Origin: Candidatus Saccharimonadales bacterium
Lineage (GTDB): Bacteria > Patescibacteriota > Saccharimonadia > Saccharimonadales > SZUA-47
NCBI GenBank assembly: GCA_041737385.1
Contig: JBGSRU010000002.1
Span: forward strand, 397,437 to 461,436
Direction: 5' to 3'
DNA: 64,000 nt
The translations under genes and the position numbers were made by a program. The notes under the pieces were generated by a model. The model was not told where the DNA came from and ran no database searches. It saw nothing but the letters and a program-made list of their open reading frames with translations. How positions within the stretch are numbered: the first letter of the stretch is position 1; each line of letters begins with the position of its first letter. Below, one piece after another: positions 5,672 to 42,072 of the stretch.

Positions 5672-5822
5672 GGAAGACCAAGTGAAACAGCACATTAAAT
5701 ATGTAGCCGAAAAAGTTCAATAGTTCTAGTAAGTATTTAGGTAGATGGCTACATCTGTGGGTGCAAGTCTTCCATAAAGTTTCTAAAAGAGGCGCTAAAA
5801 AGTGCCTCTTTTTTATTTTTTG
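5672..5822 (+). ncRNA. candidate ~150-nt small RNA, class unknown
   Basis: It lies between the promoter (5635-5664) and the terminator (5787-5822). It forms a rod-like fold: 5671-5678 TGGAAGAC pairs with 5767-5774 GTCTTCCA, and 5701-5708 ATGTAGCC pairs with 5747-5754 GGCTACAT. I found no credible ORF. Confidence 0.3.
5787..5822 (+). terminator. rho-independent terminator
   Basis: AAGAGGC (5787-5793) pairs with GCCTCTT (5804-5810), followed by TTTTTATTTTTT. Confidence 0.6.
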
Positions 5823-10749: not shown

Positions 10750-10786
10750 AAAACCACCACCTGCATTAACAGATGGTGGTTTTTTG
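10750..10786. terminator. bidirectional rho-independent terminator
   Basis: AAAACCACCA pairs with TGGTGGTTTT across a 14-nt loop. It is A-rich upstream and has a T tract downstream, and sits between convergent genes. Confidence 0.65.
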
Positions 10787-27926: not shown

Positions 27927-28153
27927 CCCAGCCATAAAAACTCTAAAACTGATTAATAAGCCTCTCCGAGTTACCGAGTAGTTTGCGAGGCTTATTTTTG
28001 TAAGTAACTAAGAAAACAACAAAAATCTGATTCGCCGGTACTCGGCGAGTATGCTTCGAAGCAACGGTAACTCTGGGAGAGCTTGTTAGTCATGTTTTAG
28101 AGTTCCGGCTGGCGGTTTTGGGCATCACCCGTTTTGCCGTCAAAATGGGTGAT
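27927..28153 (+). repeat. mosaic intergenic repeat, copy R2 (right arm of inverted pair)
   Basis: Blocks CTCTAAAACTGAT (27951-27963), TAACTAA (28005-28011), CTTGTTAGTCATGTTTT (28082-28098) and CCGGCTGGCGGTTTTGGG (28105-28122), plus a hairpin at 28125-28152. Confidence 0.85.
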
Positions 28154-28430: not shown

Positions 28431-29486
28431 GTGAGTATGGCAGAAGTAGCCGACGCTAGTGAACAGACACTGAACATTGAACAAGTTGTGGGCGATATTC
28501 TAAAGACTATTGATCGTGAAAGAGAACGCGAGATTATATCCCGTCGTTATGGATTATATGACCGTAAAGAGACTCTTGAACAGATAGGGGAGCTGCTAGG
28601 TATCACTCGTGAGCGCGTCCGCCAGCTAGAAAAAGCTGTTATGACCAAACTGAAGAGTGTTGCAGCGAAAGAGCTCCCTCACATCAGTGCTATCGAATCA
28701 GTATTGAGCAAGCACATCACTTCAATGGGTAATGTCGCGAGAGTCACTGACCTAACTGACAAAGTAGTTGCGAAGCCGTCAAAAATCGATCATTCAAGAG
28801 TTGCATTTCTTGCTCAGCTCGCCCCAGCGCTAACCCATGTCGGCGAAAATGACCACTTCCATAACGCCGTATCACTCAAGGAACTTCATTCTGAAAAAAC
28901 TGTTCGTGAAAACGTCGGTCACGTCATCGAAGCAATCAAGAAAATTGGCAAACCAGTATCTATTGAAGAGATCGCTGGCGCAATGGGCCACCCAGAAGCA
29001 AAATCTGTTGAGGCGCTTGCAACCGTCAGCAAAGACCTTGCAACACTAAACGGTCGATGGGGACTGATCAAGTGGCCAACCGTTAATCCTAAGAACATTC
29101 GAGACAAAATCTACGTTATACTTCATGAAAACGGCAAGCAAATGCACTTCGGTGAAATCGCTGAAGCAATCCGTGAATCTGACTTTAAACGAAAAGATGT
29201 CACCACTCAAGCTATCCACAACGAACTTATCAAAGACAAGCGATTTATCCTCGTTGGACGCGGCATCTATGCTCTAAAAGAGTGGGGCTTCAAACAGGGA
29301 ACAGTTGCTGACGTTATCACAGAAGTCCTTAAAGACGCTGCAGAGCCACTACACCGTGATGAAATCGTTAAACGAGTCCTAAAGCGCCGTTTTGTTAAAG
29401 AAACGACTATTCTACTCAACTTGCAAGGCAAACCACAGTTCAAACGAACTGCAAAAGCCACCTACACCCTCGCCGACAAGGAATAA
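28431..29486 (+). CDS. sigma-70 region-4-like HTH fused to HARE-HTH-like winged-helix repeats
   Basis: 'RRYGLYDRKETLEQIGELLGITRERVRQLEKAV' resembles sigma region 4. 'MHFGEIAEAI...LVGRGIYALKEWG' resembles HARE-HTH. Alternative ATG at 28437. Confidence 0.5.
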   Translation: MSMAEVADASEQTLNIEQVVGDILKTIDREREREIISRRYGLYDRKETLEQIGELLGITRERVRQLEKAVMTKLKSVAAKELPHISAIESVLSKHITSMGNVARVTDLTDKVVAKPSKIDHSRVAFLAQLAPALTHVGENDHFHNAVSLKELHSEKTVRENVGHVIEAIKKIGKPVSIEEIAGAMGHPEAKSVEALATVSKDLATLNGRWGLIKWPTVNPKNIRDKIYVILHENGKQMHFGEIAEAIRESDFKRKDVTTQAIHNELIKDKRFILVGRGIYALKEWGFKQGTVADVITEVLKDAAEPLHRDEIVKRVLKRRFVKETTILLNLQGKPQFKRTAKATYTLADKE

Positions 29487-29494
29487 AACTCTTT

Positions 29495-30163
29495 ATGTCC
29501 TCAATACCCCCTCAATTCACCGTCGAGGACGTCGAGGCGCTACATCCTCATGTTCCATTCGAACATGGTCCTGATACAGTCCTAGAATTCGCAGATATGT
29601 GGGATTTTAAAACAAGATTTGAGAACGGGCTTCCCGAATTTATAGATAGCGATAATGGGACAGTACAAGATTGGCGAAACAGACTAGATATAACGAGGCT
29701 CATACCGGCTAAATCAATACCTTTTAATGGAAGATTTGCTGATATTGAAGTTGTGCCAATAGAAGATCCACTGTCTATATTTGCAGCCACGGACGCTACA
29801 GTATTAGTAACGAATGGAGCAAAAGCTCATAGTGGCGAGATTGATCGGATAGTCGGTCTACCCGACACACTAAAATCACGCATCCTTGGATTTGATTTTT
29901 CAGGAAAAGCTTATTCTTCAGCTTCGAGCAGCAAATCAGAAATTACTACCATAAGAACACTACTAATGTATGTTCCCGTGTCGCCTAAGTTTGGCGTAAA
30001 ATCGATCAGTAAATATAGAGAGGATAGCTCAAGGTTTGGTTTAAGACGCTTTATGACGAAACCAACCGGCGATATTGATGCCATTACGGAACTATTAGAA
30101 AAATCAGCAGTACGAAGAATGAATCAACGATCAAGACAGGTGCCTGGTTCTGTTACCCAATAA
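29495..30163 (+). CDS. hypothetical protein
   Basis: 222-aa ORF starting 8 nt after the preceding stop, with no motif I recognise. Confidence 0.45.
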   Translation: MSSIPPQFTVEDVEALHPHVPFEHGPDTVLEFADMWDFKTRFENGLPEFIDSDNGTVQDWRNRLDITRLIPAKSIPFNGRFADIEVVPIEDPLSIFAATDATVLVTNGAKAHSGEIDRIVGLPDTLKSRILGFDFSGKAYSSASSSKSEITTIRTLLMYVPVSPKFGVKSISKYREDSSRFGLRRFMTKPTGDIDAITELLEKSAVRRMNQRSRQVPGSVTQ

Positions 30164-30381
30164 AGAGTTACATACAAAACTGAACGTTTTACGAACAATA
30201 CTAAGAATTATTATTTATACCTAAATATGTGAAAATAACGCTAATGTAGAAAAAAACAATAAAACTAGAGCGGAGCAGGTTAATAGAGGATTTTTTATAA
30301 AACATAAAAATATTTAGCAGAATTGAAGAAAAATTACTAGGCGAGAATAGCAGCAGAGGACAGAAAGCGAACATAGACATG

Positions 30382-30409
30382 ACGTCGCACAATGTATATT
30401 TTGCGACGT
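30382..30409. other. candidate dif (Xer recombination) site
   Basis: ACGTCGCACAA-TGTATA-TTTTGCGACGT. The two 11-nt arms are inverted repeats differing at 1 position, the 6-nt centre is identical to E. coli dif, and the whole site matches E. coli dif at 18 of 28 positions. Confidence 0.4.
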
Positions 30410-30589
30410 GCATATCTTATAAATAGTTGATTCCTTATACCACCCTAAATAGGGCACTTTTAAAGTAATGCCTGCTTTTCATAAAATTTTGATGTTACTG
30501 CCGTTGCTGCTACTTATTTCTAATCTTTATAGCTTCACCTATTAAACTTACAGGGCCAAGCAGTCGTAGTACTTTTTGCTACTTATAAG

Positions 30590-30598
30590 TTATCCACA
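30590..30598 (+). promoter_or_regulatory. perfect DnaA-box consensus 9-mer TTATCCACA
   Basis: Exact match in the 677-nt ORF-free gap. 8/9 variants lie at 30227-30235 (reverse) and 30622-30630. Confidence 0.25.
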
Positions 30599-30840
30599 CT
30601 TACATGCGTGAAATCACTTGCTTTTTCACGATTAAATATACTTGTATACTTTCTTCCCTGTTCACCCCTCCCTGCCGTTTGACAATATTTGACTTTTGTT
30701 TATTTATATATATAAGTATGTTTTTATATAATTTATGAACACTTTGCGAACTATAACAGGGTAAGAGCGGGTGAGCGGGCTTCCCTAACCAGCCAAAGAA
30801 ATATACGTCTCTTAAGCCTACTACTTATTTACGGAGGTCT

Positions 30841-31776
30841 TTATTTAATGAAAACTCTATCGTCGATTCTCACATCGATATACTCTTGAGGTAACTTCCC
30901 CTCGCCTGCTAGCTGTTCTATAGTCGCAGCGAGTGATCCTACTTGTAAGCGAGCATCTCGTTCAGGGGTTAGCTTTGCATATAAAGAGAGTCCATCAAAA
31001 CGAGCACGTATCTCTCTTTTCTGAACATCAAACTCAATGCTTTTTAGCTTTTTACGAAACTCCGTCGATCCATCAAACTCTGAAACAAGCAGCCCAACAA
31101 GCGTTGCTTCATCACTTGTAAGCAGTTGTGCACCTTGCGATATTGTTATATTAGGGAGAGATAACAATGGAAGACTTGCGAAAGATGAGTTTATTTTTTC
31201 TTGAGATTCTACCTGTAGCACCACACCACCCTTACTTAGAAGGGCTTCTTGGTTGCCGCCAGTATTGAGTCTTACTAGAGGGTCAACAAGACGTAAAGAA
31301 ACCTGCAATTTTCGGCCGGCTAGTGGAATAACCACTGAAGCTTGCTCTACTTCAGGAAAGGCTTCTTTTATCCGAGCCTCAAACTTTTCAGTGTTTACGC
31401 TAAACTTACTTTTATACAAAAAAGAACTACTGAAAATTTGATTAATTTGTTGATTATACGCTTCTTTTGATCTGTAGGATTTAGTTGTTTCGCTGTCAAA
31501 GCTTTTTATTCGTACCGTTGTCGATGATAGTGTCGTGTTAATAAGTATGACAAACCCAAGAGCGAACAAACCAAACCATTTTATAAAGATGTTTGAAGCA
31601 CGTTTTATGGTAATTCTATCTGAGTCTTTTTGGTTTTGTAGATTGGTTTTATCTTTCTTCCGCGTTTTGGCAGCGGTTGCGTTCGCCGGCCTATAGTAGC
31701 GCGCAATAGGTGCAGATTGCCTAGGTGGGAGACTTGCACGTCGGCCTTGCTCTTTTTTCTTGAAAAATTTTTTCAT
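30841..31776 (-). CDS. ftsQ: cell division protein FtsQ/DivIB-like
   Basis: Basic N-terminus, a single TM helix, a POTRA-like region, and a position directly after murG. Confidence 0.65.
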   Translation of the reverse strand: MKKFFKKKEQGRRASLPPRQSAPIARYYRPANATAAKTRKKDKTNLQNQKDSDRITIKRASNIFIKWFGLFALGFVILINTTLSSTTVRIKSFDSETTKSYRSKEAYNQQINQIFSSSFLYKSKFSVNTEKFEARIKEAFPEVEQASVVIPLAGRKLQVSLRLVDPLVRLNTGGNQEALLSKGGVVLQVESQEKINSSFASLPLLSLPNITISQGAQLLTSDEATLVGLLVSEFDGSTEFRKKLKSIEFDVQKREIRARFDGLSLYAKLTPERDARLQVGSLAATIEQLAGEGKLPQEYIDVRIDDRVFIK

Positions 31777-31785
31777 AAAACAGTA

Positions 31786-32976
31786 CTATAATCCAGAAGT
31801 ATTATTTTTAGTCTTGATGAGAATTTCTGCTATACGATCCGCTGCGTCTGTTGACGACATACGGTGAAGAGCTTTACGAAGCTCATCCTGACGAGCTAAA
31901 TTACCCAATAACTGTGTTGCTTCCACCATAAGACGTGTTTGAATATCTTTCTCAGCAACAACTATCGCAGATTTATTCTTGATGTATACTTCAGCATTTT
32001 TGAGTTGATGTCCTCCGGCAAGCAAAGGATTAGGAACAATAATACAAGCTGCTGCCTGCGCCGAAAGTTCAGCCATATTCGTCGCACCTGCTCTGGTTAT
32101 GATAACGTTTGCTGCCGCACTGTACGTATAAAGCTCGTTACTGAATGGTTCGAGAATCACGCGTTTCAAGCGCTCTGGTAATAGTTGCTTGTGATAGCTT
32201 TTTTGTACTTTATCGAACAACTTCTGACCTGTTATGTGTATGATGTGGACGCTTTCGTCGTTCAACAGCTCATTGCTCCCCTGCACCACCCTTTCGTTAA
32301 TATTTTGTGCACCCAGTCCTCCGCCAACTACTAATAACACTTTTGCCGTTTCAGGAAACGAAAGTTTACGTCTTGCGGCATTTCTGCTCTCGGGTGTTGC
32401 TAACTGGTACTCCGCGCGTACCGGCACACCTACTTTTACTGTTTTTTTACTATCATATTTGGGGGTGTAGAACTCTGGATCCATGGCGGTCGTGTGGACT
32501 GACGCTTTTTTTGCAATCAAACGGTGAGCCAAACTAACCATAGCATCCGAATCATGCGTTATGTATGGAATATGACGAAACCCTGCCGCTATACCAACTG
32601 GTGCGCAAACATAACCACCTTTCATGAAAATAACTTGAGGTTTAATACGTCCAAGCAGCACCCAAGATTCAATAATTCCAAGTATAAAGTATAGAAAATC
32701 TCGCACATTAAAAAATAACGTTTTTATATCCACTATTCGTTTAAAGTAGCTTTCTCCGTAGTAACGTCTAAACTTGCCTGCATGTACGGTTTTACGATCC
32801 GAGAAAGCATCGCTCCTTTTGATAATATCGTTTAAGCGGTCACCGTATTGACCGATGTGTATAATTGAAGCGTTTTCATCAAGTTTGTGCAGTGCTTCAG
32901 CAACGGGGATTAATGGTGTTAGGTGACCACCAGAGCCACCGCCAACAAAGACATAAACATTTTTTTTAGATGTCAT
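31786..32976 (-). CDS. murG: UDP-GlcNAc:lipid I GlcNAc transferase MurG
   Basis: 'VGGGSGGHLTPLIPVAEAL', 'VVGGGLGAQNIN' and its dcw-cluster context. Confidence 0.9.
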   Translation of the reverse strand: MTSKKNVYVFVGGGSGGHLTPLIPVAEALHKLDENASIIHIGQYGDRLNDIIKRSDAFSDRKTVHAGKFRRYYGESYFKRIVDIKTLFFNVRDFLYFILGIIESWVLLGRIKPQVIFMKGGYVCAPVGIAAGFRHIPYITHDSDAMVSLAHRLIAKKASVHTTAMDPEFYTPKYDSKKTVKVGVPVRAEYQLATPESRNAARRKLSFPETAKVLLVVGGGLGAQNINERVVQGSNELLNDESVHIIHITGQKLFDKVQKSYHKQLLPERLKRVILEPFSNELYTYSAAANVIITRAGATNMAELSAQAAACIIVPNPLLAGGHQLKNAEVYIKNKSAIVVAEKDIQTRLMVEATQLLGNLARQDELRKALHRMSSTDAADRIAEILIKTKNNTSGL

Positions 32977-34212
32977 CTAAATGTTCCTTCTGCTGTAACG
33001 AACCGGCTCATTTCTGCGGACTTCAGACTTTTTCTGAGCAATTGAGAGATCTGTGTAGCGTGAAACTTGGAAAACAATACCCATTGCGATCATAACAAAA
33101 ATAATGCTTGTTCCCCCGTAACTAACAAAAGGCAGTGTGATACCCTTTAAAGGTAATAAGCCGACCATCGCGCCGATGTTAATCATCATTTGAACACTTA
33201 GCCACACTAGTATCCCCGTAACAAGCAACCTCATGTAATCTGTAGGAGCGGCTTTTGCGATAGCTGCTATGCGAGTGAACAATAACCAAAAAATAACCAG
33301 CACGCCGATTGAGCCAACGAACCCAAACTTCTCTGCTACAATCGCAAAAATTGAATCATTAGCAGGCTCCGGTAGATACCCGTAAGCTTGTACGCTTCGC
33401 CCTAAACCTTTCCCGAACATGCCACCTGATCCAATAGTAATAAGTGCTTGGCAAGCTTGGTATCCTTCTGCTTGGCAGTCGGCCGTTGGATTGAAAAACG
33501 TAGCGATGCGGTCTCGTCTATAAGGAGTGCTTATCACTGCAATGCTTGCAAGTGATAGAACGACAACACCAACAATTGCTAGTTTTTTCATTGGAAGACC
33601 AGCGGTAAACGCCATCAACCCAACAACTGCCATCATGACTGCAGCTGAGCCCAGATCACTTTGCAGGCCGGCAACCATGACGATGATTATTCCGATTAGG
33701 CCGCCCAACCACTTTAAACTGTCATCGGACTGAAGCTTGTCATCAAGCCTTTTTTTCGTCAAAAAATATGCCAGCCATAAAATAATCGCTAGCTTTAAAA
33801 GTTCAGCAGCTTGAAAAGAAAAACCGCCCACTTGAATCCAACGGTGAGCACCATTGATTTCTTCACCTATGAAGCGAACCATAACACCAATAACAAGTGC
33901 TGCGATGATGATTGGTGTTTGTAGTTTTCGCCACTGTTCTATTCGTAGTGAGCCAGCAATAGCAAAACCAATAATACCAAGTCCAATTGCTATTAACTGT
34001 TTGTTGCTGAAATAGTTTTCTGGAAGATTAGTGCCGTTTGTTAGGCCGGGGCCGATCGCATAAACGACTACTGCACCAATCACGAGTAAAAGCGTCATTA
34101 AAATCAGCAATACATAGTCAGGTCGGTGGCGTCTAGATGATGTAGTCTGGTTCGATTGATTATCACGAGGACTACGGCGCCGAGCTGAGAGTCTTGCGCC
34201 GCCATATCTCAC
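32977..34212 (-). CDS. ftsW: SEDS family peptidoglycan glycosyltransferase FtsW
   Basis: Polytopic, with 'LPEPANDSIFA' and 'GLLPLKGITLPFVSYGGTS'. I prefer the GTG at 34212, which overlaps the mraY stop as GTGA, over the ATG at 34305. Confidence 0.85.
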   Translation of the reverse strand: MRYGGARLSARRRSPRDNQSNQTTSSRRHRPDYVLLILMTLLLVIGAVVVYAIGPGLTNGTNLPENYFSNKQLIAIGLGIIGFAIAGSLRIEQWRKLQTPIIIAALVIGVMVRFIGEEINGAHRWIQVGGFSFQAAELLKLAIILWLAYFLTKKRLDDKLQSDDSLKWLGGLIGIIIVMVAGLQSDLGSAAVMMAVVGLMAFTAGLPMKKLAIVGVVVLSLASIAVISTPYRRDRIATFFNPTADCQAEGYQACQALITIGSGGMFGKGLGRSVQAYGYLPEPANDSIFAIVAEKFGFVGSIGVLVIFWLLFTRIAAIAKAAPTDYMRLLVTGILVWLSVQMMINIGAMVGLLPLKGITLPFVSYGGTSIIFVMIAMGIVFQVSRYTDLSIAQKKSEVRRNEPVRYSRRNI

Positions 34213-35249
34213 GATCCATGCTCCAACAAGTAAATAATTAGTCCAACGAACGCGCACATGACACCAAGGATCCAAAAACGCATAGTTACTTTTGCTTCGG
34301 GCCAACCAAGTGCTTCAAAATGATGATGGATTGGTGCAATCTTAAAAATCTTTTTACCGCCACGTAATTTTTTTGAATATATCTGCAGTAAGCTAGAGCC
34401 TGCTTCAACGACAAACACACCACCGATAATTGGCAGTAATAAAACTGTATCTGTTAGCATTGCAACTACACCGAGCGCAGTACCCAGTGCAAACGAGCCT
34501 GAATCACCCATAAAGAATCTTGCCGGATATACATTAAACCAAGTGTAGCTAAGCAGCGCACCTACAATAGTAAGGCAGAACCCAGCAATACCATACTCAC
34601 CTTGTAAAATAGCGATAAAGCCATAAATACTAAAGGCTATTGCCGCGAGTCCACCCGCTAGCCCGTCCAGTCCGTCGCTTATATTAACTGCATTTGCAGT
34701 GGATACGACGACGAGGATAAACAATGGAATAATCAGCCAACCGAGGAATACATCACCAAATACCGGTACATTTACTGTATCAACGCCAAGTTTTGCGAAA
34801 AACCACCATCCACCAATAAGCGATACGATAAATATCAATAGCGACTTAGTTCGCGCGCGAAGTCCTGCGACACCTTTGCCAAAGCTTTTGATGTTCAAGA
34901 AGTCGTCTAGTAAGCCTATACAGCCTGCTCCTACCATTGCAGCTAGTGGCAGCCATGTCTGAGAGCGATCTAAGTTGAAGAGCAATGTCACAAGCGCAGT
35001 TGAGACAACGAATATGATACCTGCCATAGTTGGAATGTTGTTTCGGTGCTTTGCAGCATGTAGTTTTTGGTACATTGTCGCTTTTTCACCAGTGACTGCA
35101 TTCGTTCGAGCTTTTTTCCACCATTCATACTTATACGATACTGTCGTATAAAGTGGTGTGAGCAGCATCGCAAGCATAAATCCAAACACACCAAACAGTA
35201 AAACTTCTATAAACGGGCTTGCTTGGATTGTAAACGTTATATTTGACAT
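34209..35249 (-). CDS. mraY: phospho-N-acetylmuramoyl-pentapeptide transferase MraY
   Basis: 'NAVNISDGLDGLAGG', 'FMGDSGSFALG' and 'APIHHHFE'. Confidence 0.95.
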   Translation of the reverse strand: MSNITFTIQASPFIEVLLFGVFGFMLAMLLTPLYTTVSYKYEWWKKARTNAVTGEKATMYQKLHAAKHRNNIPTMAGIIFVVSTALVTLLFNLDRSQTWLPLAAMVGAGCIGLLDDFLNIKSFGKGVAGLRARTKSLLIFIVSLIGGWWFFAKLGVDTVNVPVFGDVFLGWLIIPLFILVVVSTANAVNISDGLDGLAGGLAAIAFSIYGFIAILQGEYGIAGFCLTIVGALLSYTWFNVYPARFFMGDSGSFALGTALGVVAMLTDTVLLLPIIGGVFVVEAGSSLLQIYSKKLRGGKKIFKIAPIHHHFEALGWPEAKVTMRFWILGVMCAFVGLIIYLLEHGS

Positions 35250-35313
35250 GTATTTCTTTCTGTGTAGCTAAGTCTTATTACTTTAAGACTTCTAACCTCT
35301 GTTAATTGTATCA

Positions 35314-37089
35314 TTAATTGCTTATCCTTGATACGCTAAAATTATCAATCATCATGTTAGATAAGCTCGAAAATATTGGCCCTGCTGCTTGTGAACCTGC
35401 GTAGCCCCCGATTCCCGGTTCATTCACTCGTACCATGATGACATAATCAGGTTGGTTTCCTCCAACATACCCAACATAAGTTCCGTTGAATTTATCCTCA
35501 AAATACCCACCTGATGGATTAGCAATTTCTGCAGTACCGGTTTTGCCACCAACTTGATAGCCGTCTCTCACGGCAGTTCTATTGTTCTTGTCGACAACAT
35601 TGTTCATGAATGCAACTATAGTCTGCGAAGTCTCGGGCTTGACGACAGAAGTTCGTACAACAACTGGTAGTTCCGCTTGAAGTTCAGACTCACCATCAAG
35701 TGAACCACTTATGAATGTCGGCCGGTAGTATGTACCACCATTGATAACAGCTGAGACTGCAGAAGCCATCTGCAGCGGTGTCACGGTCATTCCCTGCCCA
35801 AACGCTGTATTCGCGTACTGGATATTGAGTCCAAAGCCTTCCGTTGGGCTCGGGATAATACCCTCGGCTTCAAAACCTTGCTCAATACCAGTTAGCTGTC
35901 CAAATCCATAGTGGTTAATCATGTAATCATGCCAAACTTTTCTCCCCTGCTCGTTTAGCTCACCACCGCCCATTTGCATGAGAAGCCATGTCGCGCCTGT
36001 ATTTAGAGAGAAGCGCAAGATATCAGAAACACTGCGCGTTGCTGCACCGCCATCTTCTTCAATATTTCGTACCGTTGCACCGTCAATTTTGAAAAAACTT
36101 GGATCAAAATAGGTTTGATCTTTACCGACTGAATTCGAATCCAAGGCAGCAGCAGCAGTTAGCGTTTTCATAACAGAACCGGGTTCTAACGGCTGGCTCA
36201 CTGCAGCGTTTGTAAACAATGCTGCATCTTCTACATCCGAAAACTTTGCAGGATCATATGACGGATAGTTTGCAAGTGCTTTTATAGCTCCTGTTCTGGG
36301 ATCCATTATGATGGCGCTTCCTGATTCACTTTTAGCATTTTTTAAGCCTTGCTCTAATATCGTTTCAACTTGTCGTTGCATCGCAACATCGAGCGTTAAT
36401 ACGATATCTTCACCATCGATAGGATCAATTGAAATATTATCAGAAGTTGCAAGCAGTGGCACATTATTCTGATCAGTGAGTGCTTTTACCTTGCCTGGAG
36501 TGCCCGTTAATTCATTGTTAAAGAATTGTTCTATACCGTAGTTGCCTTCACCAGCATCATTCACAAACCCAAGTATTTGCCCGGCGATATTACCTTGCAC
36601 GTATACGCGGAATGGTACTTTTTCATTAGTAAATATTCCAGGGAGTTTTAGTGCTTCTATTTGCTGTTTTATGTCCTTAGTCTGCTTGTTAGCAAGAATT
36701 TCATAGCGAGAGTTGTTTTGTAACTGTTTGTTAATCTCTTCCGCCGGCCGGCCAAGTATTGAGCTGAGCTTCAGAGCAGTATCTGATGAGTTGGTGACAA
36801 TTTCAGGATCCGCAACTATTCTATATCGTGTCTCGTTTAATACTAAGGGGACGATCTCGTTTCCGTCGTAGGCGTATATATTTCCTCTGTCTGCTGCAAT
36901 ATCAAACTGTTTTAGCTGACTGTTTTGTGCTTCATTTTGATAAAAATCATGCTTCAAGATCTGTAAATAAAATAACCGTAGTCCGAAAACGACGGTCACA
37001 AATGCTAATACTGCGTAAAATAGTTGGATTCGCTTAATTGAAGAAATAAATGGTTGCTGCATATGGTTACTCCTAGTATATAGGTTCAC
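35314..37089 (-). CDS. ftsI: penicillin-binding protein (FtsI/PBP2-type transpeptidase)
   Basis: N-terminal TM anchor, a PBP dimerisation region, and the transpeptidase motifs 'SVMK' (SxxK), 'SLN' and 'KTGT'. Confidence 0.85.
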   Translation of the reverse strand: MNLYTRSNHMQQPFISSIKRIQLFYAVLAFVTVVFGLRLFYLQILKHDFYQNEAQNSQLKQFDIAADRGNIYAYDGNEIVPLVLNETRYRIVADPEIVTNSSDTALKLSSILGRPAEEINKQLQNNSRYEILANKQTKDIKQQIEALKLPGIFTNEKVPFRVYVQGNIAGQILGFVNDAGEGNYGIEQFFNNELTGTPGKVKALTDQNNVPLLATSDNISIDPIDGEDIVLTLDVAMQRQVETILEQGLKNAKSESGSAIIMDPRTGAIKALANYPSYDPAKFSDVEDAALFTNAAVSQPLEPGSVMKTLTAAAALDSNSVGKDQTYFDPSFFKIDGATVRNIEEDGGAATRSVSDILRFSLNTGATWLLMQMGGGELNEQGRKVWHDYMINHYGFGQLTGIEQGFEAEGIIPSPTEGFGLNIQYANTAFGQGMTVTPLQMASAVSAVINGGTYYRPTFISGSLDGESELQAELPVVVRTSVVKPETSQTIVAFMNNVVDKNNRTAVRDGYQVGGKTGTAEIANPSGGYFEDKFNGTYVGYVGGNQPDYVIMVRVNEPGIGGYAGSQAAGPIFSSLSNMMIDNFSVSRISN

Positions 37090-37095
37090 CCTGTA

Positions 37096-37440
37096 CTACT
37101 GAATCGTTGCTGTTGGTGCAACGGAGACAAGTCCTGCTGATGCTTTTGCAACAGCTTCAGAATCAATTGATCGCAATCTTGCCGCAGTCAGCTCTAGGTC
37201 CTTTTGATCTTCTTTGAGCGATGACTGTTTGGTTTGCAACTCTTGAATTTGATAGCTATAGGCATTGGTTTTAGTCACTTGTGTAAGATAGACCAAACCG
37301 ATAAGACACGTCAGAACGATAAGTACTATAGCGTTACTAACTGGTCCGAGCCGCGTTGACTCGTTTCTGAAAGAAACAGCATTTTGGCCTCTCGACGCGT
37401 AGCGTGATTTGCCCATTGATAGTGATGTTGAATATGTCAT
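37096..37440 (-). CDS. ftsL: FtsL-like cell division protein
   Basis: 114 aa with a single TM helix and a coiled-coil, in the conserved position between rsmH and ftsI. Confidence 0.5.
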   Translation of the reverse strand: MTYSTSLSMGKSRYASRGQNAVSFRNESTRLGPVSNAIVLIVLTCLIGLVYLTQVTKTNAYSYQIQELQTKQSSLKEDQKDLELTAARLRSIDSEAVAKASAGLVSVAPTATIQ

Positions 37441-37474
37441 ATTATTTTGTTTTTATTTTTCTTTTGTGGTTTTT

Positions 37475-37512
37475 GAGAGTGAAAGGTAAACACAAATCGA
37501 CCTTTCACTCTC
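37475..37512. other. perfect 13-bp hairpin in the rsmH-ftsL spacer
   Basis: GAGAGTGAAAGGT (37475-37487) pairs with ACCTTTCACTCTC (37500-37512) across a 12-nt loop. There is no U tract on the operon (-) strand. Confidence 0.5.
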
Positions 37513-37671
37513 TTTTAAACCGTTGGACGCTTCTACTAAGCGCTGTCAGTCAAAGTTTTTTGCTTTTCCTCTAATAAAGTGAGTTAAGCGACTCTGACTT
37601 TTACTTTGTAGGAGCGTGAGCTTGTTTTTACCTGAATTGGCATATTACTAGCCCTGCCCTTCTTTTTATTT

Positions 37672-38589
37672 TTATTTTCGCTTGCTCACTCGTAGCTTCG
37701 CACTACGGGCTCGCGGATTAAAAACTAATTCATTCGGAGAAGCTTGGCGCGGTTGTTTGGTAACTTCTGTAAATACCGCGTCGTATCTATCTCCTGCATG
37801 TTCTTTGAAAAACCGCTTTACGATTCGGTCTTCCAAACTGTGGAATGTAATGATGCCTAAGCGTCCGCCTGGTGCCAACAACGACATGAGGAGTGGTAAT
37901 GCTTTTTCTAACTGTCCTAACTCATCATTTACCTCAATCCGAACTGCTTGAAACAGTCTCGTTGCAGGATGTGAGCGAGAATGGCCTGGCCATACTTTTT
38001 TAGCAACTTGTGCTAATTCACTAGTGGTTTTAAGCGGTCGTGATCCAATAATCACTTGCGACATACGTCTTGCTTTTGGTTCTTCTCCATAGACACGTAA
38101 GATTCGTTCAAGCTCACTGACTGAATAGGTATTTACTACCAGCTCAGCAGTCATAGCTTGGCTCGGATCCATGCGCATATCGAGAGGCCCATCGTTAGCA
38201 TACGAAAACCCCCTATTTACATTGTCAAGGTGCGGTGACGATACGCCTAAATCAGCCAAAATAATATCAAATTGTTGCTTTTCATCAGCCAGCTCTTCAG
38301 CTGCTTTCAGAAAATCTTGATGCTTCAAAACGATCTGCTTATTTGGAGCAAACCTATCTTTGAGGACATCAATAGCGTTTTCGTCTCGGTCAACTAATGT
38401 TGCCGACCCCTGAGTAATACTCAAGATTTCGCTCGCGTGTCCACCGTAACCTGCAGTTAGATCTAGATACCTTTCGCCTTTTTTGGGACTTAGGGTATCG
38501 AGTACTTCACTACTGAGTACTGGTGTATGTTGATTTGTTTTGTTTTTGATTTTTGTTTGTGACATATCTTTTTTTGTGTTTAAAGTCAC
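37672..38589 (-). CDS. rsmH: 16S rRNA (cytosine1402-N4)-methyltransferase RsmH
   Basis: 'HTPVLSSEVLD', 'DLTAGYGGHA', 'ADLGVSSPHLD' and 'FHSLEDRIVK'. Confidence 0.9.
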   Translation of the reverse strand: MTLNTKKDMSQTKIKNKTNQHTPVLSSEVLDTLSPKKGERYLDLTAGYGGHASEILSITQGSATLVDRDENAIDVLKDRFAPNKQIVLKHQDFLKAAEELADEKQQFDIILADLGVSSPHLDNVNRGFSYANDGPLDMRMDPSQAMTAELVVNTYSVSELERILRVYGEEPKARRMSQVIIGSRPLKTTSELAQVAKKVWPGHSRSHPATRLFQAVRIEVNDELGQLEKALPLLMSLLAPGGRLGIITFHSLEDRIVKRFFKEHAGDRYDAVFTEVTKQPRQASPNELVFNPRARSAKLRVSKRK

Positions 38590-38864
38590 CTAATCAGCAG
38601 CCAACTTTTTATTTTTATACGTTTTTGTTTTTGTTTAGTTTAAACGATGCGAATTTAGGAAGGTTTTTTTTTGAGAAATTTAAAAAATTTCTATATAAGC
38701 TTCCTTCTCATCTTGTTTAAACTTAAGTTGAGAGACTTATGTGTGAGGTGGAGTTTTGGGAGGTGTTTTATGACTCTTGAACAGAGTCGAATGTACGAAG
38801 GTTTTTTAGAGTGTTCCTTATAATCACTTGTTGACTGCCAAATAGGTAAGTTTAAAAACTAACT

Positions 38865-38887
38865 GAGACACCCCTTCGGGGTTTCTC
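38865..38887 (-). terminator. hairpin, possible attenuator/terminator between mraZ and rsmH
   Basis: On the - strand: GAGAAACCCC-GAAG-GGGGTGTCTC with 1 mismatch, followed by AGTTAGTTTTT. Confidence 0.3.
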
Positions 38888-39067
38888 GTCGCGTAAGGGA
38901 CAGTGAAATAAATTCCCTGTTCCGACTGCTCTTCCCGATGCAAAAGCTGCAAGCTTTATCACATTCGAGTAAGATCATTTTTAAATGTTTCTTATTTGGT
39001 CTTTTTTGGTAGCCCTTGCTGGCAACTACATTTGTTAATGTACGTTATATAATTCTCAATTGATTAG

Positions 39068-39427
39068 CTACTTTGCCATCAACCGCCAATAACGACCTAC
39101 TCCAACCACGACGACATCTTTATCGATTCCTGCATAGGCAACCAAGTGGCTATCCAGTCGGATACGTCCTTGCTTGTCATCCAGTGCGGTTTCAACCTTG
39201 CCCATCCTAAACTGTACGTTAAGGTCGGCGATCCGCTCATCGAGAATGTCACCATCAAGCTTTGGTTCTACCATTGTGTTCCAGACATCTACTGGGTACA
39301 CATGTAGGTATTTTCCAAACCCTCGGGTGATGATTACTCCACTAGCTAAGCTATCCCGCATCTCTGGCGGAACCGTCAAACGATTCTTATCGTCGAGTTT
39401 GCGTTCGAAGTAATCTACTTTTCCCAT
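39068..39427 (-). CDS. mraZ: transcriptional regulator MraZ (short form)
   Basis: Two SpoVT/AbrB-like halves: 'KLDDKNRLTVPPEMR' and 'LDDKQGRIRLDSHL'. It is the first gene of the dcw cluster. Confidence 0.8.
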   Translation of the reverse strand: MGKVDYFERKLDDKNRLTVPPEMRDSLASGVIITRGFGKYLHVYPVDVWNTMVEPKLDGDILDERIADLNVQFRMGKVETALDDKQGRIRLDSHLVAYAGIDKDVVVVGVGRYWRLMAK

Positions 39428-39535
39428 AGTGTGATTGTCATTCCTTTCCTATTTTCGAAAAGGAATTGAGTTTTAAATTTGCAAGTGGTTTTTGTTTTCT
39501 GCTTCTAGGTTGCTGTTTTTGCTTCCTTTGGCTTT

Positions 39536-39591
39536 TCCACTACACATACAATACTACCCACTGTTCCCCACGACAACCCCTTTTTACCCAT
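39536..39591 (-). promoter_or_regulatory. phased GTGG(G/A) boxes, candidate MraZ operator
   Basis: On the mraZ-sense strand, GTGGA is at 39536-39540, GTGGG at 39557-39561 and 39567-39571, and ATGGG at 39587-39591. Spacings are 21, 10 and 20 nt, about helical phase, 110-165 nt upstream of mraZ. Confidence 0.35.
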
Positions 39592-39612
39592 TTCTCTACT
39601 GAACATACTCAC

Positions 39613-39621
39613 TTATCCACA
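39613..39621 (+). promoter_or_regulatory. perfect DnaA-box consensus 9-mer TTATCCACA
   Basis: Exact match upstream of mraZ. It overlaps the GTGG-box series, so it may simply be another box. Confidence 0.2.
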
Positions 39622-39699
39622 GAAATAAAAATACCCACTACCTGTGGTGTGGGTAAGTTCAGTAGCTACGCTATTATAGCTTTGATACTCTTATTCGCC

Positions 39700-40176
39700 C
39701 TAAGGCTTAGGTACAAGAGTAGGTAAAGGAGTCACCGCAGAACCGGCTTCTGAAATGCGCTCTGCGTTTGGTGCATCAAACATTACAAAATCTTCACCAG
39801 GGATAATTGATGTAAATCTGTTAGGATTTTTACCATTAAGCTCGGCGACGCGTCTTAATTCTCTGTTCACAGCTCCTGAAGGAATCTCAGCGCTAGGATC
39901 TGCTTCAGCTGTTCGAAGCTCGGCTTCAACAAGACCATAAGGTGTATCACCCTCTTCAACCGTCACTACAGTTGTAGCAGGTGCTCTTTCAGCTGGTTCT
40001 TCTGAATCTCCACCAATAATTGCATTTCCAACTAGTAAACTGCCTGCAGCTAAACCAGCAACAATCATTGCTTTTCTTGCACGAGATAGGTGATCAGGTG
40101 TTAATGTTGGATCTGTGTTGGTAGTGTTACCGGGGGTACCGTGTTGTTTTGTTCTAAGTGGTGCATTTTTTGACAT
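39700..40176 (-). CDS. membrane-anchored LysM-like protein (tentative)
   Basis: A single TM helix ('MIVAGLAAGSLLVGNAIIG') followed by 'VVTVEEGDTPYGLV...VAELNGKNPN...IIPGEDFVMF', which resembles LysM. Confidence 0.3.
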   Translation of the reverse strand: MSKNAPLRTKQHGTPGNTTNTDPTLTPDHLSRARKAMIVAGLAAGSLLVGNAIIGGDSEEPAERAPATTVVTVEEGDTPYGLVEAELRTAEADPSAEIPSGAVNRELRRVAELNGKNPNRFTSIIPGEDFVMFDAPNAERISEAGSAVTPLPTLVPKP

Positions 40177-40241
40177 AGCTTGTATTATACTACACGCTTA
40201 TGGTTTTGTCAATATATTATGCAACTTTTAGCGTATATATA

Positions 40242-41543
40242 TTATTTATGACTTAATTCAGCAATTCGCTCAGCATAATACTTAGCAGACGGTCTCACCG
40301 TTCGTTTCATCGTCTCTCTATCTACGTGCACTAAACCAAACTCCGGGAACCAACCATACGCCCATTCAAAGTTATCAAGGAGGCTCCAGTGGTAGTAACC
40401 TTTGAGCTCAATTCCTTCAGATAACGCACGCTCCATCGCGATTATCGTCTCTTCTATCCACCATTTACGCTGTTTGTCGTCAGCATCTGCTAAGCCGTTC
40501 TCAGTGATGATTATAGGTTTATTATAGTGTGCGTAGACTCTCACCAAAAGCGGATAGATTCCTTCTGGCTCCATATACCAGCCAAGATCACTCTTTGGCA
40601 GACCTGGGTTATCCTGATGGAACAACGTGTTTTTACGGCCTTTGTACTGCCTGAACGAATAATAATCAGTAAAGTAGTAGTTGAAGCCAACATAATCTTG
40701 ATATCTTTTGATTCGGTTCAAGAACCACCAGTTCCAAAAATAGCGCATCCACCTAACGGCGAGGTTATCCCAGAAATTCTGCGGGCGTTTTGCCTGTATG
40801 TTTGCTAATTGGGCTGCAACGCCAATTTGTAGGCTCTTTTTATGCTTTTTAAGGATTTTATATGAGCGCTTATGTGCAACTGATAGGTTGTAATATACCG
40901 TTATAAAAGAGAACCAGCTTTTTTTATTGGGTGGCCATTCCCCCGTTGCGTAGCCGAAGCTAGAATAGACGTTTGGTTCGTTCAGTGTGATGATGTACTT
41001 CAGCTTGTTTATAGGGAGCTCTTTACAGACTTTTGCGACAAAACGCTCAAAATACTTTATATTTGAGCGTTTTTCAAAGCCTCCCTTCTCAGTAAACCAG
41101 ACCGGCATTGTCCAGTGCCACAAGTTCAGCATCGGAACAATGTCTCGAGATAATAACTCTTCAATATATTCCTTGTAGTGAGCGAACGCCTCTGCATTCC
41201 ATACACCTTCTTCTGGTTCAAGTCGCGACCATTCTATTCCGAACCTGAAAGCGTTCAAATTCAGCTTCTCGGCGATATCAAAGTCGTGTTTGTAGTTTTC
41301 GTAGTGCCTTATACCTACTCCTGATAAGTAATTTTCAGGTGTCTCCGCTTGCGACTTAAACTTATCCCACTCTGGAAGCCAGTTTAACCGTTTATCTGCA
41401 GTTGCAGCTAATTCGCGCGCGTTTTCAAGTTCCCACACCGTCCATTGATTATAAGTGTTGCCTTCTACTTGATGCGAAGCGGTACTAGCGCCCCACATAA
41501 AATCCTTCGGGAATACGTTTTGTTCATTTATTTTTTTTGTCAT
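40242..41543 (-). CDS. glycoside hydrolase family 1 beta-glucosidase
   Basis: 'FMWGASTASHQVEG', the acid/base 'TLNEPNVY' and the nucleophile 'IIITENGLAD'. I place the start at M39 (41543) because the upstream extension lies inside a repeat copy. Confidence 0.9.
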   Translation of the reverse strand: MTKKINEQNVFPKDFMWGASTASHQVEGNTYNQWTVWELENARELAATADKRLNWLPEWDKFKSQAETPENYLSGVGIRHYENYKHDFDIAEKLNLNAFRFGIEWSRLEPEEGVWNAEAFAHYKEYIEELLSRDIVPMLNLWHWTMPVWFTEKGGFEKRSNIKYFERFVAKVCKELPINKLKYIITLNEPNVYSSFGYATGEWPPNKKSWFSFITVYYNLSVAHKRSYKILKKHKKSLQIGVAAQLANIQAKRPQNFWDNLAVRWMRYFWNWWFLNRIKRYQDYVGFNYYFTDYYSFRQYKGRKNTLFHQDNPGLPKSDLGWYMEPEGIYPLLVRVYAHYNKPIIITENGLADADDKQRKWWIEETIIAMERALSEGIELKGYYHWSLLDNFEWAYGWFPEFGLVHVDRETMKRTVRPSAKYYAERIAELSHK

Positions 41544-41584
41544 TATGTAGAGTTTACCAGAAATTATAGAAATTGTGGCTTTGC

Positions 41585-41750
41585 GCGCCACACCTCGCCA
41601 TACTTTTACCTGCAGGTGCAAAAGTATGCAAAACCCCCGCACCCGGCCGAAAAACATGATTGAAACAAGATACCAGACAGGCTTGCGCAGCGAGGACGCA
41701 AGCGACCTTCGGCTTATCTTCAGCTATTTGCCTTAGGTTGGCTCACTGCT
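41585..41750 (-). repeat. mosaic intergenic repeat, copy R3a (truncated)
   Basis: The reverse complement of 41585-41700 aligns with 47060-47170 of R4. Shared features are CTGGTAT..TTTCA.TCA.GTTT, GGGTGCGGGG(G)TTTT, and the hairpin TACTTTT..AAAAGTA at 41601-41626. Confidence 0.8.
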
Positions 41751-42072
41751 TGACTCAAGCCAGACTGATTTGCTTCATCAGTTTTTCAGAGGGTGAAAGG
41801 TTCAATCATGGATTGAAGCCCGTAGCTCCTGTAGCCCAATCCAGCATAAAACGCGAGAAACCAATGAAACAACTGCAAAACAAGTCGAGTCAATTGTGAG
41901 GACCAGGCAAAAGTACTTAATGGTAGAATCTACTTTTGCCCGACCAAAGGGAGTTCCGCAACAACGACCTGTTTTGCAGTTGTTTCAATTGTGTTTGTTG
42001 CGTCCGGGTGGTGGTTTTTGCCTCTCGTTTTTGGCAGCAAAAATGAGAGCCTTCTGTCGCACGGATGCGACA
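41751..42072 (+). repeat. mosaic intergenic repeat, copy R3b
   Basis: ACTGAT (41764-41769), a 10-bp stem (41906-41915 with 41931-41940), CGACCAAAGGGAGT, GTTCCGCAACAAC (41953-41965), TCCGGGTGGTGGTTTTTGC (42003-42021), and a hairpin at 42022-42049 with loop GGCAGC. Confidence 0.8.

Follow-up and report, generated by a model that had tools for sequence, protein, structure and literature searches.

A probable chromosomal dif site between convergent genes in Saccharibacteria, with related copies in prophages and viral contigs

The stretch of DNA analysed here (hereafter the window) comprises 64,000 nt of a genome of Saccharibacteria (TM7, Patescibacteria), a large group of ultrasmall, epibiotic bacteria, most of them uncultured. 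A + strand ORF (open reading frame) of 222 aa that ends at 30163 and a - strand ORF of 311 aa that ends at 30841 border a gap at 30164-30840, within which only ORFs of 70, 47 and 44 aa occur. The coding strand switches across the gap, with 71% of ORF bases on the + strand to its left and 90% on the - strand to its right. Inside it lies a 28-bp element that is present once in the window; its two 11-nt arms pair at 10 of 11 positions around the centre TGTATA. The gap, the strand switch and the palindrome had all been described in an original prediction made from the sequence, and all three were borne out. We consider it highly probable (roughly 0.88) that this element is the chromosomal dif site of this genome. 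The dif interpretation, also that of the original prediction, is supported by the element's conservation, its single copy, its terminus-proximal position and the integrase-less prophages found at the site in related genomes. The parts of the element are as follows:

30382-30409, no strand assigned: dif-like core of 28 bp, with the arm ACGTCGCACAA at 30382-30392, the centre TGTATA at 30393-30398 and the arm TTTTGCGACGT at 30399-30409
30382-30392, + strand: XerC-like arm, which resembles published XerC arms and is the arm left intact in phage attP-type sites

Read on the - strand, the core is ACGTCGCAAAA TATACA TTGTGCGACGT. Its layout is that of dif, with two inverted arms of about 11 bp and a 6-bp centre. 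A published criterion for dif is palindromy between positions 7-12 and 17-22 with more than four pairs (Kono et al. 2011, PMC3025954), and here five of the six pairs form (CACAAT versus ATTTTG).

Conservation of the element was assessed in three sets of relatives. In five syntenic relatives, whose FtsQ-like protein (the product of the 311-aa ORF) is 39-49% identical to that of the window, the same convergent gene order surrounds a gap of about 600 nt, and in the alignment the core GTCGCAAAATATACATTGTGCGAC is invariant, unlike most of the gap. The pattern CGCAAAATATACATTGTNCG, in which the core is fixed by construction, was scanned against one genome per species and matched at least 120 assemblies, once per assembly and nearly all of them labelled Saccharibacteria, Saccharimonadales or Saccharimonadia. 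For an unbiased sample, 80 metagenome loci were retrieved solely by their FtsQ-like protein, at identities as low as about 21%. The site was found in 68 of these 80 loci, in constant orientation and 380-580 nt beyond the FtsQ-like gene; the remaining 12 were judged too short to reach it. Across nearly all relatives the core lies about 420 nt past the FtsQ-like stop codon. The palindrome is thus kept in 5/5 synteny-anchored loci, 68/80 protein-anchored loci and at least 120 species, and its absence from relatives, which the original prediction had named as grounds for refutation, was not observed. A closer or second match elsewhere would likewise have counted against it; across 1.41 Mb of related sequence no other place matches at 19/24 or better, and among the matches listed there is one per assembly.

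The 63 unique sites of the unbiased sample share the consensus GTCGYAAAA-N6-TTGTRCGAC(RT). Their arms are invariant except for one Y and one R, and for two positions that each change rarely. The centre is 6 bp long in 63/63 sites and varies in sequence (TATACA in 47, GATATA in 11, TACACA in 2, and TATGCA, TCTACA and GATACA in one each). This combination of invariant arms with a spacer of fixed length and free sequence has the look of a tyrosine-recombinase core site. The symmetric Y and R positions vary independently of each other (C..G in 36, T..G in 15, C..A in 7 and T..A in 5), so neither strand keeps an RNA hairpin. A one-base difference between the arms (AAAA versus ACAA) is retained in all 63 sites.

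The site also persists in different surroundings. It lies between convergent genes in three contexts: between the dcw cluster and the topA group, between the dcw cluster and a TrwB-like gene, and between an HD-domain gene and atpC-atpD. Two loci (L016 and L022) carry the core after ftsQ, facing a TrwB/VirD4-like gene, and a third (L090) carries it between the HD-domain gene and atpC-atpD; in all three the core is present and the flanking motifs described below are absent. In L016 (173-2890) and L022 (5085-7823), a type IV coupling protein of the TrwB/VirD4 kind, 905-912 aa long, replaces the topA group. By analogy with the gonococcal genetic island, this gene could belong to a conjugative element at dif. 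The 28-mer of L090 (CAZDHE010000016.1, labelled Bdellovibrionales) is identical to the window site; either this contig is misbinned or the site occurs in another lineage.

Independent support for recombination at the site comes from viral sequences. Scanning viral contigs with the pattern GTCGYAAAANNNNNNTTGTRCGAC returned at least 120 viral stretches with the host arms, with 53 different centres among the matches listed. Also among the matches listed, 21 viral loci encode a Zot-type morphogenesis ATPase (PF05707, 22.7 bits against a cut-off of 20.3; PHROG 197 also matched). Gene order in these 21 loci runs from host murG-ftsQ through a full site at the usual distance to small membrane proteins, Zot and a rolling-circle Rep (phrog_3419). 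In the six loci that are long enough (L219, L259, L265, L294, L327 and L330), the inovirus-like block ends at a second site 5.3-5.9 kb further on. In all six lysogens the centre and right arm of this second site are identical to those of the first and its left arm is degenerate, as the pair from L259 illustrates:

L259, first site: TAAGTCGCAAAA TATACA TTGTGCGACATA
L259, second site: GCAATATCGCAA TATACA TTGTGCGACATG

In L219, L259 and L265, the host right-flank motifs resume past the second site and not past the first. No tyrosine-recombinase motif was found in the ORFs of the viral loci, and no recombinase domain in the scanned ORFs of the blocks. A block flanked by a full site and a hybrid site has the structure of elements that integrate through the host Xer system at dif and preserve an intact dif. 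The arm kept by the hybrid phage site corresponds to 30382-30392 (ACGTCGCACAA) of the window, which itself is without such a prophage insertion. L294 and L330 have the same prophage gene order, with the sequences flanking site 1 and site 2 swapped between them; this swap may reflect tandem or alternative integration events.

Roughly 40 further viral loci among the matches listed are tailed phages that carry a full site between 33 nt and about 2 kb upstream of terL-portal. These sites occur in either arm orientation, with no recombinase nearby in the available sequence. The tailed-phage contigs (L213-L332, e.g., L320, L332, L244, L215, L258 and L229) are 36-52 kb long and combine the host arms with many different centres. 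The host recombinase may serve such phages for integration or for genome resolution; none of them was seen in integrated form.

If the element is dif, Xer-type tyrosine recombinases encoded elsewhere in the genome would bind its two arms of 9-11 bp (GTCGYAAAA and TTGTRCGAC-RT) and cleave where the arms meet the 6-bp centre. A dimeric chromosome carries two copies of the site, and the exchange of strands between them would yield two monomers at division. The identity and number of the recombinases, the dependence on FtsK and the function in dimer resolution are all inferred. Gene orientation flips at the same point, so that any converging KOPS-type polar motifs would coincide with the coding-strand bias. 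The arm at 30382-30392 would be the XerC-like one, because it resembles published XerC arms (10/11 to that of Methylacidiphilum, ACTTCGCACAA, and 9/11 to that of L. casei, ACTTCGCATAA) and because it is the arm kept by integrating phages. The AAAA/ACAA asymmetry, together with the one-armed phage sites, argues against functional equivalence of the two arms.

The proposed position near the replication terminus was partly upheld. Convergent genes and a mid-chromosome location in three complete relatives speak for it: the site falls at 48.67% of CP064960.1, 47.62% of OY970322.1 and 46.55% of OY970327.1, an offset of 18-41 kb from the midpoint. A complete Saccharibacteria genome has been described with bidirectional replication, a normal symmetric skew and an origin between dnaN and dnaA (PMC6031116). 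In a fourth complete record, CP023991.1, the site lies at 75.8%, and we assume the start of this record to be arbitrary. With arbitrary starts, the chance of three records placing the site within 4% of the midpoint is estimated at about 0.002, from which we infer that these three records start at the origin. The expected mirror in coding-strand skew at 30.4 kb was not seen. Cumulative GC skew in the window stays level between about 3 and 30 kb and declines steadily past 30 kb, and the coding-strand skew at third codon positions (GC3 skew) is distributed as follows:

Left of the gap, + strand genes: -0.141 ± 0.022
Right of the gap, - strand genes: +0.042 ± 0.021
Left of the gap, - strand genes: -0.018
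Right of the gap, + strand genes: -0.090

The left + strand and right - strand genes (1-30163 versus 30841-64000), both directed at the site, thus differ by 0.18.

Several of our observations weigh against the dif assignment. A single replication direction throughout the window accounts for the GC3 values better than a mirror at 30.4 kb does. This pattern places the skew shift point probably some tens of kilobases left of the site, which agrees with the offset of 18-41 kb and is close to the published range for dif, within 1.4% of the genome at one sigma and with outliers below 3% (PMC3025954). The terminus position also depends on the assumption that CP064960.1, OY970322.1 and OY970327.1 start at the origin. 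Likeness to canonical dif is modest: the second arm is unlike the canonical XerD arm TTATGTNAANT, and the best score against 12 published dif sites, 20/28, is equalled at two other, unrelated places in the window. No tyrosine-recombinase motif (H.LRH box) was found in the window and about 1.4 Mb of flanking sequence, a search that did not extend to xer and ftsK genome-wide, and the existence of a recombinase in Saccharibacteria rests on a published Xer-related subgroup, 'Cand', that is confined to candidate phyla (bioRxiv 10.1101/542381). Finally, the core sits in a conserved module with an invariant DnaA-like motif, which is unlike known chromosomal dif.

One argument of the original prediction did not hold. 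An identity of 18/28 to E. coli dif had been offered as evidence, and this score is at chance level: six sites in the window reach it where shuffled sequence gives 4.4. Palindromes of 11-6-11 layout with at most one mismatch number five in the window against 0.7 expected. The other four (5785-5812, 10753-10780, 28125-28152 and 42022-42049) look, at least in part and judged by eye, like terminators (e.g., AAAAGAGGCGC..GTGCCTCTTTT). The window sequence alone is therefore suggestive, and the comparative data carry the case for dif.

In most relatives the core lies inside a conserved module of about 570 bp, measured from box to box, that contains several fixed motifs. In the window these are:

30182-30196, - strand: box 2, GTTCGTAAAACGTTC, a direct repeat GTTC-N7-GTTC
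30368-30381, no strand assigned: core-adjacent extension, CGAACATAGACATG (- strand ..CATGTCTATGTTCG), near invariant in close relatives
30443-30454, no strand assigned: inverted repeat CCC-N6-GGG; in relatives TCCCCTG..CAGGGGTAT, about 55-75 nt from the core
30590-30598, + strand: DnaA-box-like 9-mer in single copy, TTATCCACA (- strand TGTGGATAA); in relatives TGTGGAWAAGTCAAAT
30607-30630, no strand assigned: inverted repeat CGTGAAA-N10-TTTCACG adjoining the DnaA-like box, with the conserved inner sequence AAAAAGCAAAT on the - strand
30687-30697, + strand: repeated motif ATTTGACTTTT (- strand AAAAGTCAAAT), with 1-4 copies in relatives
30737-30751, - strand: box 1, GTTCGCAAAGTGTTC, in the same orientation as box 2

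Box 2 (GTTCG-N5-TGTTC) lies about 190 nt from the core (+190, counted on the - strand relative to the core) and in one orientation in 134 of 171 loci, and box 1 about 370-400 nt from it (-370 to -400) in 155 of 180. Both are direct repeats with 11-bp spacing, a layout as for regulators of the OmpR/ArcA type, which is a speculative analogy, and they match what we take to be the ArcA box at 11 of 15 positions. They also resemble half of a dif site (TCGYAAAAT.T.CA is common to both); conservation is strongest at GTTCG and TGTTC, and not at AAAA as for half dif sites. The DnaA-like 9-mer is invariant in six syntenic loci, and TGTGGAWAA occurs within one mismatch at -200 to -300 in 96 of 106 loci and in 55/55 unbiased loci. 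A terminus-proximal site is an unexpected place for such a box. The inverted repeat beside it reads GTGAAAAAGCAAAT..TTTTCAC on the - strand of relatives. Within the core-adjacent extension, the T.TAT part is widely kept (positions +30 to +34, 1.0-1.6 bits in 63 unbiased loci), and in lysogens it follows site 2 and not site 1.

The stem bases of the CCC/GGG repeat are conserved and do not covary. Since stems are conserved without covariation and folding energies are unremarkable, the flanking motifs look like protein-binding DNA rather than an RNA gene, and we predict them to be such. In some lineages the core persists without the flanking motifs, and prophage insertion puts more than 5 kb between box 2 and an intact core. 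That the module holds binding sites for accessory or terminus-organising proteins is speculative. A broader picture, which we offer tentatively and hold to be rather less than an even bet, is that Saccharibacteria, and perhaps Patescibacteria more widely, resolve dimers at a quasi-palindromic dif that mostly lies in a nucleoprotein module of about 570 bp regulating recombination or organising the terminus, and that tailed phages without integrases carry the same arms with many crossover sequences.

Other explanations of the site were weighed against these data. It might be an attB for a dedicated integrase, encoded by the host or an element and unrelated to dimer resolution, and be conserved as the target of many mobile elements. 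Many viral contigs do have matching arms, and integration at the site is directly seen. We nevertheless regard this as very unlikely, given that the integrated elements and phage loci lack a recombinase in the available sequence, that the site is present and terminus-proximal in essentially every genome sampled, lysogen or not, and that one arm resembles published XerC arms. Targeting by mobile elements alone would not hold a site invariant across a class. A slim chance remains for a terminus protein other than a recombinase, such as a fork barrier of the Ter/RTP kind, an SMC-unloading site or a MatP-like organiser, whose site the phage copies would mimic. Such a protein would suit a single copy near the terminus between convergent genes, embedded in a conserved array of motifs that resemble protein sites. 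Against it, the prophages lie between a full and a hybrid site with the centre and one arm in common, which is what site-specific strand exchange produces and not what mere binding would. The centre, constant in length but not in sequence, is also typical of the region where a recombinase crosses strands over, and fork traps normally have several oppositely oriented sites.

The location downstream of two convergent operons, in a long gap with conserved blocks between variable stretches, could also fit a transcription terminator or, if the gap were occupied by an unannotated non-coding RNA gene, a hairpin of that RNA. We find this scarcely credible. The site has no T-run, and a scan of the gap returned no terminators and promoters at chance level. 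Comparison with Rfam (the whole window at gathering thresholds, the gap at E up to 10) gave nothing relevant, and a tRNA and tmRNA scan of the window gave no match. Folding of eight gap segments produced mostly positive z-scores; the segment 30590-30735 has z = -2.3, and the like value on both strands indicates AT palindromes at the DNA level. Stem and loop of the core are invariant, apart from paired positions that vary independently with mismatches on both strands. A conserved small ORF was rejected as well, as the 70-aa ORF that overlaps the site shrinks to 13 aa in a close relative. Least probable of all, to the point of near exclusion, is that the gap with its palindrome is a replication origin or a DnaA-titrating element. 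What would suit this is the invariant TGTGGAWAA, which nearly all relatives have about 200-250 bp from the core amid AT-rich repeats, but each locus has one DnaA-like box and lineages without that motif keep the core. Genes converge on the gap instead of diverging from it, and no dnaA or dnaN lies near it among the window ORFs. The published Saccharibacteria origin is between dnaN and dnaA (PMC6031116), and the site is at 47-49% of complete chromosomes. We rejected identity with oriC because of how the genes are oriented, because there is a single DnaA box and because the published origin lies elsewhere.

The genes adjoining the gap are the following:

29495-30163, + strand: convergent gene of 222 aa, the last of the dprA-topA-...-Sigma70_r4/HARE-HTH group
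30841-31776, - strand: FtsQ/DivIB-like gene of 311 aa, divergent in sequence, the last gene of the dcw cluster

Left of the gap, the + strand encodes der, pth, dprA, topA, a 201-aa ORF, a Sigma70_r4/HARE-HTH protein and the 222-aa ORF. The Sigma70_r4/HARE-HTH protein (351 aa, 28431-29486) joins a sigma-70 region 4 domain to a HARE-HTH domain; its gene is on the same side of the site in 63 of 70 loci, and the small gene adjoining the gap varies. Sigma-70 region 4 binds TTGAC-type sequences, and repeated ATTTGAC motifs are present in the gap. To the right, the - strand carries a compact dcw cluster, mraZ-rsmH-ftsL-ftsI-mraY-ftsW-murG-ftsQ (30841-41657), which is reduced in that murC-F, ddl, ftsA and ftsZ are missing from it. 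The FtsQ-like protein of the window matched no Pfam family; a homologue in L022 weakly matches FtsQ_DivIB_C and POTRA. Homologues of this 311-aa protein carry the name Candidatus Saccharibacteria. The original prediction had noted no xer gene in the window, and none of its 61 ORFs of at least 150 aa has a recombinase domain; DnaA and FtsK are likewise absent from these 61. As no H.LRH box was found in any locus, xer is not linked to the site.

In a literature search, no paper turned up that defines dif or integration through Xer in Saccharibacteria or in other bacteria of the candidate phyla radiation (CPR), and a paper reporting CPR inoviruses makes no mention of dif or Xer. As far as the searchable literature shows, this would be the first defined dif site for Saccharibacteria. 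The site offers a sequence marker of the terminus region for checking and orienting genome assemblies, and would explain the 'non-canonical' attachment of inoviruses in this group. As a site for a host recombinase, it could serve marker excision or single-copy integration in the few genetically tractable Saccharibacteria. New Xer biology may be sought in the flanking module and in the many copies that phages carry; if the phage reading is true, integration or genome resolution that depends on host Xer extends in this phylum from filamentous to tailed phages.

Among known systems, the closest comparison is with XerCD/dif of Proteobacteria and Firmicutes (E. coli dif; B. subtilis dif with CodV-RipX). 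Shared features are a length of 28 bp, two inverted 11-bp arms, a 6-bp centre, A/T-rich inner arm bases, a single copy near the terminus between converging replichores, and exploitation by phages that lack an integrase. The arm ACGTCGCACAA is near published XerC arms, and the window centre TGTATA is the centre of E. coli dif. In contrast to XerCD sites, the second Saccharibacteria arm almost mirrors the first and does not follow the XerD arm, and none of 12 published dif sites exceeds 20/28 identity to the window site. The Saccharibacteria core mostly lies within its conserved module of about 570 bp, whereas chromosomal dif works without accessory DNA. Single-recombinase Xer systems (XerS/difSL of streptococci, XerH/difH of Helicobacter and Campylobacter, XerA/dif of archaea) are comparable in that the arms here are more symmetric than those of XerCD dif, a kind of site that a single recombinase could use, as the original prediction had suggested, and in that Saccharibacteria do not belong to the phyla for which XerCD was defined. 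Both xerS and xerH adjoin their sites, while no recombinase gene lies within at least 30 kb of the site here; the AAAA/ACAA asymmetry and the one-armed phage sites also set the Saccharibacteria arms apart as non-equivalent.

The plasmid Xer sites cer and psi (with ArgR/PepA and ArcA/PepA) and the TnpI IRS likewise combine a core with conserved flanking motifs, a resemblance that we take as analogy only. The Saccharibacteria motifs differ from them in standing on both sides of the core, up to 400 bp away, and in being dispensable in some lineages. The prophages in turn resemble integrative mobile elements exploiting Xer (IMEX), such as the CTX, VGJ and TLC phages of Vibrio and the gonococcal genetic island. 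They are filamentous-phage genomes with Zot and a rolling-circle Rep, lack a recombinase and sit exactly at the site, where an intact site and a hybrid site share the centre and the XerC-like arm and an intact dif is preserved. Differences from the known IMEX are the Patescibacteria hosts and the tailed-phage contigs, in which a full site stands upstream of terL and no integration was observed; we know of no description of such an arrangement for IMEX. The features that define IMEX are found in the six related loci L219, L259, L265, L294, L327 and L330, at the site that corresponds to the one in the window.

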